DNA from: a virus
Lineage: Duplodnaviria > Caudoviricetes
Virus record (IMG/VR): IMGVR_UViG_3300011116_001227
Reading direction: 5' to 3' (one strand)
DNA: 64,000 bases
Both the position numbers and the translations under genes were made by a program. Shown one piece after another: positions 1 through 5,641 of this stretch. Position 1 is the first letter of the stretch. Each line of letters opens with the position of its first letter. The notes beneath the pieces are model-generated. The model searched no databases, was not told the origin of the DNA, and worked only from the letters and a program-made list of their open reading frames with translations.

Positions 1-1978
1 TAGTTAATTCTTCTATTTTCGACCTAATAGAAACTACTTCTGTATTTTCTTCATTTTTTAAAGCTTCTTGGAGATCGACCAAACGCTGCTGCGCTGTCTT
101 TAGAGACTCATCGATCGAGTCACAAGAAGACCTAGACTTTTCTATCTCGGTTTCTTTCTTCGAAATTTCCAATTTAATCTTTGAAGAAAGCACTGAAGCT
201 TTCTCTAATTTATCAATCTTTAATTCGATTGATTCTTTATTTAATGTAATGATCGAGTCTTTTAGTCTTGTCAGCTTTTTTAAAGTAGATGCAATCTTTT
301 TATTTTGAGATTCAATTTTATCTCTACTTTGATGAGCATCTTTAATAAATTTACATGTGGGATAATCATCTCCACAGGGAACTTCGTCCAGAATCTTTAG
401 AGATTTCTGGTGTTGATTGAGGATCGATGTTTCTTTGTCGTATAGATGATTTAACTCTGAAAGAGATCTTTCAAGCTCATTTATTGAAGAAAGTCTTCTT
501 TTTAGATCATCAATGTCATCAGAAGACTCAACTTCTTCTACAATCATTAGCTTTTTCTTCAAATCAGTAATATCTGATGATAACATTCCAATCTTTGATT
601 TGCAGTCTTGACAAGATTTAACTAATGTGTCAACTTTTTTCTCTTGCAATTGCACGTCAGTAGGCGTGACAACTTTTACTTCTTTGTGACAAGAAAGTTC
701 TGTTCTCAAATCAGATATTTCAGTCTGATGCTGATTAATAGAATGGACTAGTTCATCAATTTTTGATTCAATAACGTCTATAGAATCTTGTGCTTGTTTC
801 TTTAATTCATCCCAATTTCTATCAGGATAATTTTTTAATTGAGACTTAAAAGAATTTAAGTCTTTATTTGCAAGATCTGACATTTTGTCAAAAATGTCAA
901 GTCCTAAAAATTTTGACAAATAAGCTCTTCTTTTTGTAGATCCTTGAGAGATAAAAGAATTGATATCACCCTGCGCTGACAAAGAAGTAATTGAAAAATC
1001 TTCGTGTGTCCCAATTAAAGATCTAATAGATTTTTCAGTATCAGTTCTTAAATCTCCACACAGATCCTCAAGTTCCCCGTCTTCTTGAGCTCTAAAGAAA
1101 TTTAAAGAAGTCGTAGCATTGACTACACCTCGTTTATTCGTAGATTTGGTTGTCTGTCTTTCCGCAATATAAATTTTTCCGTTATGATCAAATATTGCTC
1201 TAGAATAACAGTGAGGTTTTCTAATATTGCAAACATGAAGATTCTTTAAGGCGCCTCTATCTGTAGTGTTAAATAGTGTATAGACCATTGTCCCTACAAT
1301 TGAAGACTTACCCGTTCTATTTGGGCCAAAGATTCCAATGATGCCATTTAACTTAGAAAAATCAATTTCATTATCTTCACCGTAGGCAAAAGTATTGTCC
1401 CACTTTAAATGCTTTAAAGACCACGTAGAACCTCTAGAAAAGTCATCTGACGAAATGACAGTCGATAAGTATTTTTTAGTCTGACCAGCTAGAGCATCCC
1501 AGTCAACTTCTGTGTTGCCGTTCTCTTTGCAGTAAGTTTGAATTAAACTTAAAATTACCTCTGGTGAGTTTAAATCTGACTTTACAATCGTAGAAGTTCC
1601 CGCTTTAATGACTTCACTTTCTGCTTTGTATTCAGATTTAAATGTTACTTCTGTGGCAGAATATTTGTTTTTTAGCGTTTCATTTAGAAAACTAATATCA
1701 TCTTGACTAAGCGAATTAGGTGATTTAATTCTAAATCTTGACTGAAGTGGGTGATTTTTAACTTCTTTTAAGAAGTCTTCTTGAGAACCTGACCATTGAA
1801 TGGTAACAAAAGGTTTTGGATTAGGGAGCTTTTTAAATGTGACATCCCAATCATTCTCATCTTTGATATCCCAAAGAAGATAACCATGGTCCAACTCCTC
1901 TGCGTAATTCTGCTGCACCGGACAACCACTGTAAGCTATCCAAGGTTTTTTTACCTTTATTTTTATCTTTTTTCCCAT
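1..1978 (-). CDS. C-terminal part of SbcD/gp47-like nuclease fused to SbcC/gp46-like SMC ATPase (partial, runs off window start)
   Basis: Not in ORF track. Manual translation from ATG at 1978: MGKKIKIKVKKPWIAYSGCPVQQNYAEELDHGYLLWDIKD (Mre11/SbcD last phosphoesterase motif region), then WSLKHLKWDNTFAYGEDNEIDFSKLNGIIGIFGPNRTGKSS (SbcC N-terminus, Walker A), then coiled coil with a central CPTCGDDY hook-like motif read as EVPCGDDYPTC; frame open at the points checked down to base 2. Confidence 0.88.
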   Translation of the reverse strand, partial: MGKKIKIKVKKPWIAYSGCPVQQNYAEELDHGYLLWDIKDENDWDVTFKKLPNPKPFVTIQWSGSQEDFLKEVKNHPLQSRFRIKSPNSLSQDDISFLNETLKNKYSATEVTFKSEYKAESEVIKAGTSTIVKSDLNSPEVILSLIQTYCKENGNTEVDWDALAGQTKKYLSTVISSDDFSRGSTWSLKHLKWDNTFAYGEDNEIDFSKLNGIIGIFGPNRTGKSSIVGTMVYTLFNTTDRGALKNLHVCNIRKPHCYSRAIFDHNGKIYIAERQTTKSTNKRGVVNATTSLNFFRAQEDGELEDLCGDLRTDTEKSIRSLIGTHEDFSITSLSAQGDINSFISQGSTKRRAYLSKFLGLDIFDKMSDLANKDLNSFKSQLKNYPDRNWDELKKQAQDSIDVIESKIDELVHSINQHQTEISDLRTELSCHKEVKVVTPTDVQLQEKKVDTLVKSCQDCKSKIGMLSSDITDLKKKLMIVEEVESSDDIDDLKRRLSSINELERSLSELNHLYDKETSILNQHQKSLKILDEVPCGDDYPTCKFIKDAHQSRDKIESQNKKIASTLKKLTRLKDSIITLNKESIELKIDKLEKASVLSSKIKLEISKKETEIEKSRSSCDSIDESLKTAQQRLVDLQEALKNEENTEVVSIRSKIEELT

Positions 1979-2865
1979 AACTTCTTAGTCAAAACTTTTG
2001 AAAAATTTTCACTTATTATTTCTGATTCCCAAAATCTTAATAGATGTAACCTTGCATCTATTGCAAGCTGATTTTTTATGTTATCATTAACAAAATTGTA
2101 CTCTTGGATGTGATCTTTTTCTTTGTATAGAGACGGATTTGCATGCCAATAATCACCATCACATTCAATCAATATTTTCATCTCAGGAATATAAAAATCA
2201 AATTCTCTCTTTACTAAATCTAATTCAAGAGTGTAGGGATGAACAAATTGTATTTGTAAAGAAGTTAATAACTCATATACTATTTTTTCTATTCTCGTGT
2301 CTCTTTTAGGAATAGCTTCTTTTGCAATCTGCTGACTTGTTTTTCCGTATAACTCAATATTCGTTTTTTCACATTTTTTACGAACATCCCTGTTTGACCA
2401 CGGATGTTTAAATCCATATTTTTCTTCGCACGTTTTCTTACGTTTTTCTTTACTAAACTCAAGTTGTCCTAGAGAACAACCTGTCTCTTTTTTTCTTCTA
2501 TCAGAAACTTGTTTCATTAATTCTGAATGATTAATGACGTTTTCCTCTTTACTCCAATATATTTTTTGAGATTCTCTTACAAGGCTTCTTGTTTCTTCTG
2601 ATGGAGAAATTCCGTACATCGGATTATTTTCACCAATGTATGTTATTTTTTGATGATCATCTTTACACGATCTTGAACAATATCTCTTATTTTTTTCGGA
2701 TTTCCAATCCTTACAAAAAACAAATTCTTCTTGACAATTTTCACATTTCTTTTTTTCTCTAGCTGCCTTAGTATTCTGCTTTGCTACACCTACAGCTTGA
2801 CATTTTCTACTACAATAACTCTTTTGTTTTGCAAGTTGTTCATCGCAGTTATTACATTTTTTCAT
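1963..2865 (-). CDS. Free-standing homing endonuclease, Vsr-like/EDxHD (DUF559-type) with Zn-finger and NUMOD3-like DNA-binding modules
   Basis: Two CxxC...YCSRxC motifs, GENNPMYG...SEETR, KRKKTCEEKYG, C-terminal DFYIPEMKILIECDGDYWH...D...LLRFWESE; lies between two halves of sbcD. Confidence 0.85.
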   Translation of the reverse strand: MKKCNNCDEQLAKQKSYCSRKCQAVGVAKQNTKAAREKKKCENCQEEFVFCKDWKSEKNKRYCSRSCKDDHQKITYIGENNPMYGISPSEETRSLVRESQKIYWSKEENVINHSELMKQVSDRRKKETGCSLGQLEFSKEKRKKTCEEKYGFKHPWSNRDVRKKCEKTNIELYGKTSQQIAKEAIPKRDTRIEKIVYELLTSLQIQFVHPYTLELDLVKREFDFYIPEMKILIECDGDYWHANPSLYKEKDHIQEYNFVNDNIKNQLAIDARLHLLRFWESEIISENFSKVLTKKLWEKR

Positions 2866-2872
2866 TGTAATA

Positions 2873-2902
2873 ACTATACCTGCTCAACAAAATCTTGCTG
2901 AA
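2873..2902 (-). promoter_or_regulatory. Candidate sigma70-type promoter for the endonuclease (TTCAGC-N18-TATAGT, 7 nt before ATG)
   Basis: Read directly from the 37-nt spacer; the -35 match is weak. Confidence 0.35.
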
Positions 2903-3553
2903 TTATTCAATGATGGTACATCCAGGATATTTGTATAAATCATCTTCATCTATCTCTATTTCTACTTCTCTAAAATCAAGATACTGAGTCTTGTGAATGT
3001 CACCGAGAAACACATAAGGATAATCTTTAAAAAACTCAACCTTCAACTGTGCTTCATCTAGTTCCCATCCAGATTCAGTAACTGCACCGTGAACAGGACC
3101 ATGATAACATGCAATGTTGATCTTACCAGGTTCTGGTTTGACATTCTTCCACCCCTCTTCGTCAAAGAGTGAATAAACACACCAATTAAATCCAGGTTGA
3201 AACTCATAAACGCCGCTCTTCTTATAGAGATGAACCTTGGGATTATTTAATGCTGTTACGATAGGAGACACGGCATCTTGTCTGGACAGATTAGTCAAAT
3301 TGCCATCATGATTTCCTAAAGTTAAATGAACTGGTGCTACTTCAGCCATTGCTTCGAGCCACCAAGTTAATTGGTCAATATACTCGGGTGAGATGCCAGT
3401 TGTTTTGGTATGGAAAATGTCGCCACCGACAAAGATATGATCGACTTTATTCTTCTTGCAATCTTTTACAAATGCTGTAAAAACTTCTCGATATTCATCG
3501 TGACGACTTAAACCACGCCAATGTATGTCGGCAGTATGTGCAATCTTTAGCAT
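2903..3553 (-). CDS. sbcD: N-terminal part of SbcD/Mre11/gp47-like metallophosphoesterase nuclease
   Basis: Motifs DIHW, GGDIFH, GNHD, YHG, LGDIHK present; final motif region is in the downstream ORF. Confidence 0.88.
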   Translation of the reverse strand: MLKIAHTADIHWRGLSRHDEYREVFTAFVKDCKKNKVDHIFVGGDIFHTKTTGISPEYIDQLTWWLEAMAEVAPVHLTLGNHDGNLTNLSRQDAVSPIVTALNNPKVHLYKKSGVYEFQPGFNWCVYSLFDEEGWKNVKPEPGKINIACYHGPVHGAVTESGWELDEAQLKVEFFKDYPYVFLGDIHKTQYLDFREVEIEIDEDDLYKYPGCTIIE

Positions 3554-3614
3554 CTAAGTTATAAGCATACAATGCTTTTATTGTCATGTTTAAATCTAGT
3601 CAATATAAACATTG

Positions 3615-4589
3615 CTAAAATACAAAGCTAGACGAAGTTACTTTTTCGAGTCTATTTGAAAATAAGTCGACCCATTCCATGGGTTTTGCATTTATAAGTG
3701 CATCTTCAAATTGTTTTTTCGTCATTGCTCCTGGATCTCCCCACGGTCTTACATCTACAACGATTACATCAACGTTGTATTCTTTCAATTTTTTAACGAT
3801 TTTTGGAGTTTTCTTGTTCCACATATCACCGTCAAGAGCGAGAGCGACAGGTGTTTGATGGATTAAAATTTTATTGAAGAGTTCGTGTCTTTCGTCTAGA
3901 TCAGAACCAAGAAGAGCTGTTGAATTTTCAGTACATTTAACTAAATCAAATGGACCTTCACATAAAACAAGTCTTTTAGACCAGTCGATGTTGATCTCAT
4001 TAAAAACAATTGGATTTTTATCTACATCAGGATTGTCATACTTCGGTCTTCGTGTAGGATCAATAGCTCGAGCAGCAAAATAGTTTAAATGTCCTCGATT
4101 ATTAAAAGAGGGCATTATAATTCTTCGCTTCCATCGAGTCTCATTTGACAAACCAAACTTGAAGTACCAAGCATCCTTCTCGGTTAGACCTCGACTTTCA
4201 ACGTAGTTCCAAGCTGCTTTAACATCCGGATCTGAAGTACTTGAAAGTGTCAGTAGACAAAAATCTTTTGGCAGTTCTATCTTCTTTTCTGCTTCAACTT
4301 CTGCAGTGATTATTTTAGAATCACCTAATCCAAAGAGTTCTTTGTAAGAACTTAACTGTGAATTTGTTCCATATTTTCTGATAAGAGGAGCGAGGCTTCT
4401 AGCCTTCCATCCGCAAGTCCAGCAATGATTAGCATCATCAGACGTTCTAATTGCAAGTTTCTTTTTGCTGGCATCTGAAGGAGAACAAATTGGACAGCGA
4501 ACGTCAAAATTCTTACCGTTTCCAGAAAGTCGACCTCTTCCAAAGATCGATTCATAAAAATTGATTTTATCAGTCAGCGAAAAAACCAC
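3615..4589 (-). CDS. DnaG-like phage DNA primase (Zn finger + TOPRIM)
   Basis: CPIC...HCWTCG zinc finger, YVESRGL, RIIMP, CEGPFD, LALDGD, DPG. Confidence 0.8.
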   Translation of the reverse strand: MVFSLTDKINFYESIFGRGRLSGNGKNFDVRCPICSPSDASKKKLAIRTSDDANHCWTCGWKARSLAPLIRKYGTNSQLSSYKELFGLGDSKIITAEVEAEKKIELPKDFCLLTLSSTSDPDVKAAWNYVESRGLTEKDAWYFKFGLSNETRWKRRIIMPSFNNRGHLNYFAARAIDPTRRPKYDNPDVDKNPIVFNEINIDWSKRLVLCEGPFDLVKCTENSTALLGSDLDERHELFNKILIHQTPVALALDGDMWNKKTPKIVKKLKEYNVDVIVVDVRPWGDPGAMTKKQFEDALINAKPMEWVDLFSNRLEKVTSSSFVF

Positions 4590-4621
4590 AAATTTAATCT
4601 AACACGAAGAACTTAGACTGT

Positions 4622-5182
4622 TCATTTTTTGATCAAACTTGCAGCACGTGCAATCACATAAGCATCAGTCATATCTCTACTGGCGTCTATTGGCTCACCA
4701 TTTTTCTTAGTTTGCCACTGAATATGACTTAAATCATTTTCAGACATGTACTTAAATACTTGCTCTTTTCCGTTCATGCCTGCAATAGCAGTTTTCTGCA
4801 TTTTGATTCCACAAATCTTTCTTGCTGTAGAAGAAGAAATATATTCGGGATCAATCTTAAAAACTTCTCTAGAAATGTAGGACACTATTCCATTAAATCT
4901 CATGAGAGTCGTGATGGTCGCAGCAGAAGACATTCCAGTGCGAAATCCCATAAGAGGTTCTTCAAGAACAACTCTATAATCTCCAGGGAATCTTTTTGCA
5001 AGATCGAAGAATTCAATAGCAATTTTATCAGCTTTTTCCCAAAGTGTCTTGCACTTCTTAAAGTCGACTCGATCAAGATAAGTAATGTGGGCACCTTTAG
5101 AGTCAGGAATAATCCCAGGGTCTAGAATACATACCCCTGTCACAGAAGTCGAAACATCGAGGCCGAGGATCAAATTACCCAC
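4622..5182 (-). CDS. RuvC-like Holliday junction resolvase
   Basis: ILGLDVSTSVTGVC, VVLEEP, C-terminal DMTDAYVIA acidic motifs of RNase H fold. Confidence 0.75.
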   Translation of the reverse strand: MGNLILGLDVSTSVTGVCILDPGIIPDSKGAHITYLDRVDFKKCKTLWEKADKIAIEFFDLAKRFPGDYRVVLEEPLMGFRTGMSSAATITTLMRFNGIVSYISREVFKIDPEYISSSTARKICGIKMQKTAIAGMNGKEQVFKYMSENDLSHIQWQTKKNGEPIDASRDMTDAYVIARAASLIKK

Positions 5183-5221: not shown

Positions 5222-5641
5222 TTAAATAAGACCCATATTCTTTAATTCAATTTCTGTCAATATTACGTAAGTGGCTCCGAATGTTTCGCACCAGGCTTGA
5301 GCAGCTGTAGTCTTCTTCTTCACTATAGCTTGCTCAAGCTTTCTTTTTTGTTTGATCTCTATTACTTTTTTAGATCCATCAGAAAATTCAACATAAAAAT
5401 CCGGAAAGTATCTTCGTATTTTTTTAGTCTTTTGATTAGAGACATATTCTATCACTAATTTTTCATAAGTCCAAGAAGAGACGTCAGGATTCTCGTCTAG
5501 ATGAATCATGTATTTCTGTTCCCAGCCAGATCTAAAATTGTATTGAATGCCAGACTTTGTCGAAGAATACGTGCCTCTATGATATCGACTGCGTTTCTTC
5601 TTTTTGCGTGATTTTTTTGGCATACAAAATTTAGCTGTCAA
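5222..5641 (-). CDS. TnsA-N-like endonuclease, T4 gp4 head-completion type
   Basis: FRSGWE, WTYE, RYFPDFYV, IEIKQ; basic N-terminus. Confidence 0.65.
   Translation of the reverse strand: MTAKFCMPKKSRKKKKRSRYHRGTYSSTKSGIQYNFRSGWEQKYMIHLDENPDVSSWTYEKLVIEYVSNQKTKKIRRYFPDFYVEFSDGSKKVIEIKQKRKLEQAIVKKKTTAAQAWCETFGATYVILTEIELKNMGLI

Follow-up and report, generated by a model that had tools for sequence, protein, structure and literature searches.

The locus considered here lies at the beginning of a 64,000-nucleotide stretch of Caudoviricetes virus DNA (IMG/VR record IMGVR_UViG_3300011116_001227; the whole stretch is hereafter called the window), where the gene for an SbcD/Mre11 nuclease is divided between two open reading frames (ORFs) with a homing endonuclease gene (HEG) between them. 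All of them are on the minus strand and follow, from 3553 to 2, the order SbcD N-fragment ORF, 37-nt spacer, HEG ORF, and SbcD–SbcC C-fragment ORF. According to the ORF list and its translation, the N-fragment gene (2903..3553) encodes 216 aa plus a stop; it matched Pfam Metallophos (E 2e-15) and the SbcD-like family phrog_100 (E 5e-18) and contained phosphoesterase motifs I–V (D9/H11, D45, N81, H151, and GDIH at 184–187), whose residues were invariant in split and unsplit alleles alike (alignments A1 and A3). The ORF ended 29 residues past the GDIH of motif V with a strongly acidic C-terminus (...LGDIHKTQYLDFREVEIEIDEDDLYKYPGCTIIE), of which approximately residues 197–216 (VEIEIDEDDLYKYPGCTIIE; 2906..2965, minus strand) constitute a split-specific tail. 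The stop codon was followed by the 37-nt spacer (2866..2902, minus strand) and then by the free-standing HEG (1963..2865, minus strand; 300 aa), whose product had a CxxC-rich/NUMOD3-like N-terminal region and, probably, a C-terminal Vsr-like core of the EDxHD type. The HEG overlapped the C-fragment ORF by 16 nt (1963..1978, minus strand), its last codons, L-W-E-K-R-stop, being read in the other frame as the C-fragment start M-G-K-K-I.

The C-fragment ORF (1978..2, minus strand) started with ATG at 1978, began MGKKIKIKVKKPWIAYSGCPVQQNYAEE, and ran off the start of the window after 659 aa; in relatives, the full C-fragment was about 860 aa. Its first nine residues, MGKKIKIKV (1952..1978, minus strand), formed a basic head absent from unsplit alleles, after which the sequence read W-I-A-Y-S-G-C-P-V-Q-Q-N-Y-A-E-E. 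The SbcD C-terminal part (1424..1951, minus strand), comprising the last core nuclease strands (WIAYSGCPVQQNYAEE, HGYLLWDI), the capping domain, and linker helices, was collinear with unsplit homologues, and the same ORF continued from approximately residue 186 into an SbcC/Rad50 ATPase head and coiled coil (2..1423, minus strand; Pfam AAA_23, E 3e-9, residues 195–410; phrog_77 SbcC-like, E 1e-37). The coordinates, peptides, 37-nt spacer, and 16-nt overlap given in the initial annotation all agreed with the ORF list, the sequence, and the translations. Its description of the ORF beginning at ATG 1978 as the remainder of SbcD held for the SbcD C-terminus but not for the ORF as a whole, which carries SbcC fused to it.

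Since the C-fragment joined the SbcD C-terminus to a complete SbcC, the broken gene is a single-chain sbcD–sbcC. In Microcystis phage Mel-JY01, the nearest named phage, SbcD and SbcC were encoded by one ORF of 1066 aa located beside the primase gene, and 60 of the 92 distinct related loci (here denoted by L numbers) were unsplit, with a gene product of about 1050 aa, the other 32 being split. This ~1050-aa fusion is a natural single-chain Mre11–Rad50. The association of SbcD and SbcC in one polypeptide of about 1050 aa was found throughout the phage group (window 2–3553, minus strand; L001 5953–9153; L008–L081), and it should be noted that the fused ORF of Mel-JY01 is annotated merely as 'AAA domain containing protein'.

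The place of the break was established in alignment A3, in which split alleles were compared with 31 unsplit rows. The two same-strand ORFs were collinear with one intact homologue, both in these 31 rows and in the single ORF of Mel-JY01. The unsplit alleles read G-D-I-H-Q-x-Q-Y-L-G-Y-R-E-T-S-D-G-E-K-K-P-W-I-A-Y-P-G, and the break coincided with a beta-hairpin turn that links the strand following motif V to the Y-P/S-G strand; in split alleles, this turn was swapped for the acidic tail and a stop codon, intervening DNA, a start codon, and nine basic residues. Thus, the break does follow motif V, as first described, but it falls in a hairpin turn, and the catalytic domain does not end there. 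All five metal-binding motifs were on the N-fragment, and the last core strands together with the capping domain were on the C-fragment; because the fold is divided in this way, neither fragment alone should be a complete nuclease domain, and the features characteristic of Mre11/SbcD (phosphoesterase fold, motifs I–V, and capping domain) were found only in the two fragments taken together. The unsplit state is the ancestral one: neither in the outgroups nor in any cellular SbcD/Mre11 protein is the chain interrupted at the break point. Two otherwise unsplit alleles, L015 (6001–6831) and L038 (3424–4584), ended early, 94 and 197 residues past GDIH, the remaining parts of the gene lying in other frames, which corresponds either to frameshifts of assembly or sequencing or to real pseudogenes.

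Population data delimited a mobile unit at 1913..2984 (minus strand), which included the last ~27 codons of the N-fragment with the tail, the spacer, the HEG, and the first 22 codons of the C-fragment, that is, the head and the adjoining native strand. Contigs of runs X13 and X11 (one lake run and one 'marine plankton' run) joined position 1912 to position 2985 via 73 other nucleotides, which encoded the ordinary hairpin Y-L-G-Y-R-E-T-T-D-G, and the flanks in these contigs were 96–100% identical. Over the 270 nt that precede the break and end at the His codon of GDIH, the window was 98–99% identical to the unsplit allele L009, and from the GDIH codons on it was identical to other split alleles; on the right flank, the switch to unsplit-type sequence similar to L015 occurred 40–80 nt past the QQNY codons. 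In the tree of the N-terminal domain, the split state was scattered, and 8 changes were needed to explain its distribution. In the comparison of the window with L005, the number of synonymous substitutions per synonymous site (dS) was 0.16 for the tail and head and 0.36 for the HEG, and synonymous sites in the flanking gene body were saturated.

Unsplit, HEG-bearing, and HEG-deleted forms were all present in public metagenomes, and a single river run contained both the HEG-bearing form and a form without 877 nt of the HEG. Only the first 13 and the last ~30 HEG codons were left in L002, and L004 and L007 kept the HEG 3′ end only; in all three of these alleles, the retained 3′ end included the overlap with the C-fragment, and the 37-nt spacer was still recognisable in the HEG-deleted alleles L002, L004, L007, and L025. 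In L084, a distant contig of 201 kb, an endonuclease with 39% identity was found at the same site, accompanied by an E-I-E-I-D tail and a K-K-I-K-I head. Taken together, these comparisons indicate that the cassette moves laterally and that the HEG within it decays, and both the breakpoints and the allele polymorphism are consistent with an endonuclease that presumably cleaves unsplit alleles site-specifically. DNA nearly identical to window positions 1600–3700 was recorded in river, lake, and 'marine plankton' metagenomes of 9 studies from 2018–2025, so the phage lineage is widespread; in the protein collection, the N-fragment was recorded on a contig of 210,040 bp.

The product of the HEG matched PHROG families of homing endonucleases (E 1e-14 to 1e-9) and showed weak Pfam matches to Vsr (E 6e-4; 20 bits against a curated cut-off of 27), NUMOD3, and DUF7487. 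A phmmer search of the PDB gave a weak match to the E. coli Vsr structure 1cw0 (E 0.45) and no match to the I-Bth0305I chain. In the weak 1cw0 alignment, the D-F and E-C-D-G-D-Y-W-H residues of the HEG product fell on the catalytic Asp51 and the Phe67-Trp68-His69 region of Vsr, and a Glu occupied the position of Vsr Phe62, as described for the Vsr-like family (PMC2677866); the last Asp and an R-F-W-E motif were recognised by eye only. The presence of a 300-aa homing endonuclease in the gap, proposed in the initial annotation, is supported by the PHROG families; that its core is Vsr-like, as also proposed there, is suggested by the weak Vsr match and the weak alignment over the Vsr catalytic region. 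The HEG was the sole copy in the window; both here and in L005/L006, it was intact and evolved under purifying selection, with a ratio of nonsynonymous to synonymous rates (dN/dS) of 0.15 for the window versus L005. RNA folding placed its AUG (2865–2863) in the loop of a hairpin with an 11-bp stem (2846..2876, minus strand; −20 kcal/mol, z −3.3, none of 200 shuffles being as stable), in which the Shine–Dalgarno-like GCAGG just 5′ of the AUG was paired with the coding sequence and both arms of which were conserved in L005. Similar hairpins have been reported upstream of gene-fracturing endonucleases (PMC2677866), and the hairpin found here is a candidate translational attenuator of the HEG.

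The tail and the head were absent from all 31 unsplit rows of A3 and present in every split allele examined, including GC-rich relatives with 66–70% identity in the N-fragment; the EVEIEI...KIKIKV segment singled out in the initial annotation is hence split-specific. A search of the protein collection returned 420 clusters of N-fragments of 214–233 aa, and among the proteins listed from them, 113 of the 115 with a GDIH motif ended 28–42 residues past it and retained the tail motif. The consensus tail of the listed short homologues was R-[DE]-V-E-[LI]-x-[IV]-D-E-x-D-L-x-K-Y-P-G-A-E-V-[IL]-E, in which the best-conserved stretch was D-E-x-D-L-x-K-Y-P-G-A-E-V rather than the alternating acidic strand. 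The head pattern [KR]-[IL]-[KR]-I-[KR] was kept in all 31 distinct split loci. The dN/dS of the tail and head was 0.10–0.24 where dS was measurable, and in more distant pairs the pattern survived saturated synonymous change, so that both extensions are under purifying selection. Values obtained for the N body of the pairs L004–L007 and L005–L025 were discarded, an indel having shifted the reading frame there. In the 31 distinct tail/head pairs, the tails were all net negative (−2 to −6) and the heads all net positive (+3 to +6), and the charges of tail and head were correlated (r −0.59, uncorrected for relatedness); the opposite charge of the two ends, first noted in the window, is therefore a conserved property of 31 out of 31 pairs. 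A possible origin of the Y-P-G-C of the tail as a diverged duplicate of the native Y-P/S-G-C strand was considered (10 of 12 nt identical, by reading) and set aside as unproven, L084 being without it.

For structure prediction, two natural alleles in which the fragments are in frame, L004 (15-residue link) and L047 (5-residue link), were folded with AlphaFold2 as read-through chains, the stops being read as residues, using a 34-sequence alignment. The mean predicted local distance difference test (pLDDT) scores were 82 and 84, and the junction region had the same pattern in both models with a pLDDT of 84–94. Foldseek assigned the read-through model to the Mre11/SbcD nuclease with its capping domain (top matches 3qg5, 6s6v, 4m0v, and 7dog, E 1e-12 to 1e-14). 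The first modelled strand consisted of 13 residues from Q190 through the acidic residues and was followed by a 6-residue helix (D-D-L-x-K), a Y-P-G-C coil, and a short strand starting T-I-I/V-E; the head strand comprised 15–19 residues from the basic head through W-I-A-Y (pLDDT 86–94). Consequently, in the models, the tail and head residues were confident extensions of the two strands of the native hairpin, the native strand on the head side being KKPWIAY. By register arithmetic, pairing as in the native hairpin would set V/I opposite V/I and E/D opposite K/R. The tail and head may thus pair physically, and the strand lengths suggest a three-strand clamp, in which the end of the tail would pair with the head strand's other edge. 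The acidic tail and the basic head probably hold the fragments together. The idea of a splint formed by the two charged ends, put forward in the initial annotation, agrees with extensions that are split-specific, under selection, oppositely charged, and modelled as confident extended strands, but D-E-x-D-L-x-K-Y-P-G-A-E-V, and not the acidic strand, is what is best conserved in the tail; with this comparative and modelling support, the splint is plausible, although unproven.

The explanation that accounts best for these data, with a probability estimated at roughly three in four, is that a mobile Vsr-like HEG cassette split the single-chain sbcD–sbcC gene of a freshwater phage of about 210 kb into two fragments that reassemble non-covalently. 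The cassette replaces the turn of the beta-hairpin following motif V, supplying about 20 acidic tail codons and a stop for the upstream part, its own HEG translation start, which is probably attenuated, and a start with nine basic head codons for the downstream part. Two polypeptides would result, one of 216 aa with the five metal-binding motifs and one of about 860 aa that joins the last core strands and the capping domain to SbcC, and they would associate non-covalently into one nuclease domain. In this assembly, for which the tail and head would be needed, the two extensions would prolong the strands of the native hairpin so that an intermolecular ribbon forms, I/V lying opposite I/V and E/D opposite K/R, and the tail's conserved D-L-x-K-Y-P-G-A-E-V probably clamps the head strand by folding back across it. 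The HEG presumably cuts unsplit alleles, and because repair would copy the whole cassette including the tails, the insertion would be close to neutral; the HEG later decays or is deleted, leaving a stable split gene.

Several observations weigh against this explanation or parts of it. Most split alleles lack the HEG, and two carry unrelated inserts in the gap. The pairing of the tail with the head is deduced solely from strand lengths and confidence values, and the models are single chains joined via read-through residues, which may favour a hairpin between the tail end and the head. Mutual information across the 31 tail–head pairs did not set the proposed antiparallel register apart from others, the phylogenetic signal being dominant. 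Moreover, in the ribonucleotide reductase subunit NrdA of Aeromonas phage Aeh1, comparable tails are needless for the binding of the fragments and are needed for higher assembly (PMC3045599); because of this precedent, the tails described here may serve another step, for example, Mre11 dimerisation or folding.

The strongest of the competing explanations, although still rather unlikely, is that the split is older than the HEG and independent of it, going back to a single other event, that the tail and head came into being as an interface between subunits, and that the gap later became a landing site for various mobile endonucleases, this Vsr-like one among them. It would account for the absence of any insert from 28 of the 32 distinct split loci, for the overlapping stop and start codons of GC-rich split loci, which show no endonuclease remnant, and for the unrelated inserts in the same gap of L168 and L055. 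It is also favoured by L084, where head and endonuclease ORF share only 8 nt, which means that the head is not intrinsically endonuclease-coded. However, Vsr-like endonucleases are found at precisely this position in two lineages that are very far apart (39% identity), the AT-rich alleles that have no endonuclease clearly arose by deletion, and in the window the tail, endonuclease, and head enter an unsplit backbone together; in addition, in the published model, the stop and start codons are supplied by the invading element (PMC2677866). As for the two unrelated inserts, that of the GC-rich split allele L168 (4186–5106) is a 306-aa gap ORF unrelated to the HEG, with a PD-(D/E)xK-like motif, P-D-F...E-V-K, recognised by eye, and that of L055 (6654–6965), a split allele of a 340-kb contig, is a Cys-containing gap ORF of 103 aa; in L055, the C-fragment seemingly starts with GTG.

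It is more doubtful still that the tail and head are neutral insertion debris and that the fragments bind through the large native beta-sandwich interface alone. The cut does lie in a surface hairpin turn, a kind of site at which split proteins often reassemble unaided. The dispensability of the Aeh1 NrdA tails for heterodimer formation points in the same direction (PMC3045599). Nevertheless, the tail/head pattern has been kept across hundreds of clusters in spite of saturated synonymous sites, at the low dN/dS given above; both extensions persist long after the loss of the HEG, are predicted to be ordered, and always have opposite net charges.

A broader generalisation can be proposed, tentatively and at somewhat less than even odds: the tail and head may constitute a portable 'fracture-and-repair' module, in which the tail (strand, helix, Y-P-G turn, and strand) clamps both edges of the first strand of the C-fragment. 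Since such a module would travel with the HEG during homing, the element would bring the antidote to its own damage; the module would then persist in hundreds of phage lineages after the HEG is lost and might serve as a general split-protein connector. The reusable split-protein tag envisaged in the initial annotation is likewise speculative.

Joining of the two parts by splicing was also evaluated. The Rfam scan (E up to 1) revealed no intron family at the junction, and the Pfam scan of the locus ORFs revealed no Hint or intein domain. In the 28 distinct split relatives without an insert, the gap between the ORFs ranged from −14 to +80 nt. A group I or group II intron was therefore rejected. 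The extensions totalled about 34 aa (tail ~20–25 and head 9; A3), and the catalytic junction residues of inteins were absent. The empty searches for introns and inteins, together with the insert-free split relatives, argue that the gene is expressed as two polypeptides, in line with the initial annotation, which had seen neither an intron nor an intein at this place. Programmed ribosomal bypassing of the T4 gene 60 type was rejected as well, the gap being 924 nt long with a full gene in it and the downstream part having its own ATG.

A degenerate or minimal split intein that ligates the fragments via protein trans-splicing is very improbable for the same reasons. Split inteins are used by most fractured genes with Vsr-like endonucleases (PMC2677866), N-inteins are acidic and C-inteins basic, with the same polarity as the tail and head described here (PMC2677866, PMC3045599), and an intein-remnant origin of the NrdA tails was raised by Crona et al. 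(PMC3045599). However, an N-intein has about 100 aa and a C-intein about 35–50 aa, far more than the extensions found; the tail does not start with Cys/Ser, and the head does not end with His-Asn followed by Cys/Ser/Thr; and the SbcD-like locus of Dassa et al., described below, was listed without a split intein (PMC2677866). Equally remote is the case of a dead N-fragment, an inactive pseudogene beside a functional C-fragment made up of SbcC and a crippled nuclease stub, given the invariance of the metal-binding residues in split and unsplit alleles, the intact N-fragment ORFs in 420 protein clusters, and the tight coupling of stop and start codons in most split alleles.

Upstream of sbcD, the window encoded a primase of the DnaG type (324 aa) and a RuvC-like resolvase (186 aa) at 3615–5182 (minus strand), and the primase–sbcDC order was kept in Mel-JY01 and L084. 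Between the RuvC-like resolvase and an 840-aa structural protein was a TnsA-like/endonuclease I-like PD-ExK ORF of 139 aa (5222–5641, minus strand; Pfam Tn7_TnsA-like_N, E 2e-16), which may be another free-standing mobile nuclease. A megablast search of the first 6 kb of the window against the phage collection gave no match.

With regard to known systems, Dassa, London, Stoddard, and Pietrokovski described in 2009, in a freshwater metagenome from Lake Gatun, an SbcD-like gene present as two ORFs that flank a Vsr-like ORF, with 25 additional C-terminal and 9 additional N-terminal residues where the gene is broken, no split intein, and an endonuclease 3′ end overlapping the downstream ORF (Nucleic Acids Res 37:2560; PMC2677866); by this description, their locus matches that of the window feature for feature. 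In 2011, Crona et al. showed that NrdA of Aeh1 is split by mobE and that oppositely charged tails born of the insertion are essential for its activity, and they predicted similar tails in other fractured genes (Nucleic Acids Res 39:1381; PMC3045599). The locus studied here adds one more example to a locus type and a principle that are both already in the literature; the arrangement is not novel, and no new category is opened. Beyond the 2009 description, the present analysis adds the single-chain SbcD–SbcC context, hundreds of clusters of the split form, most of them without the endonuclease, nucleotide-level recombination breakpoints, three coexisting allelic states, and a concrete structural hypothesis for the extra residues. 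The locus is a clean natural example of a selfish endonuclease that divides an essential enzyme gene without killing its host, and public data show every stage of the homing cycle, from an empty, unsplit site through the occupied one and the decay of the endonuclease to a stable split gene. The tail and head would be the second case, and a structurally readable one, of 'tails as antidote', so far proven only for Aeh1 NrdA; the well-understood Mre11 fold makes the prediction easy to test, and the single-chain Mre11–Rad50 backbone may interest students of that complex.

Also close is the nrdA-a/mobE/nrdA-b locus of Aeh1, which likewise combines an essential enzyme gene, a free-standing HEG, oppositely charged tails, and the absence of both intron and intein (PMC3045599). 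There, an RNA hairpin holds back translation of the endonuclease, whereas the hairpin found here is only a candidate attenuator (PMC3045599). Aeh1 differs in that the divided gene encodes the large subunit of ribonucleotide reductase, the endonuclease is of the HNH type, and the polarity is reversed, with a basic C-tail and an acidic N-tail; its tails act on dimerisation and not on fragment binding and have been proven essential, whereas those of the window are known from sequence and models (PMC3045599). The genes fractured with split inteins (gp41, NrdA, NrdJ, DnaE, and IMPDH) have the same order of N-part, Vsr-like or GIY-YIG endonuclease, and C-part, as well as an overlap formed by the 3′ end of the endonuclease gene, and their halves have been proposed to pair electrostatically through long antiparallel strands (PMC2677866). 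Their halves of about 100 aa and 40 aa carry catalytic junction residues and their exteins are ligated, in contrast to the extensions of approximately 25 and 9 residues considered here, none of which is catalytic. I-Bth0305I, the EDxHD prototype (Taylor et al. 2011), has a C-terminal Vsr-like core after NUMOD-type motifs, the layout predicted for the HEG product, and likewise resides in a phage DNA-repair gene, but its own gene sits in a group I intron within recA (PMC3239194). Finally, T4 gene 39/60 with mobA and gp43 of Aeromonas phage 25 with a GIY-YIG endonuclease are also replication or repair enzymes of phages divided by an endonuclease into two chains, and the ends of T4 gp39/gp60 also bear charged extensions (PMC2677866, PMC3045599); they differ from the sbcD–sbcC locus in the genes and endonuclease families involved and in the ribosomal bypassing used by gene 60.

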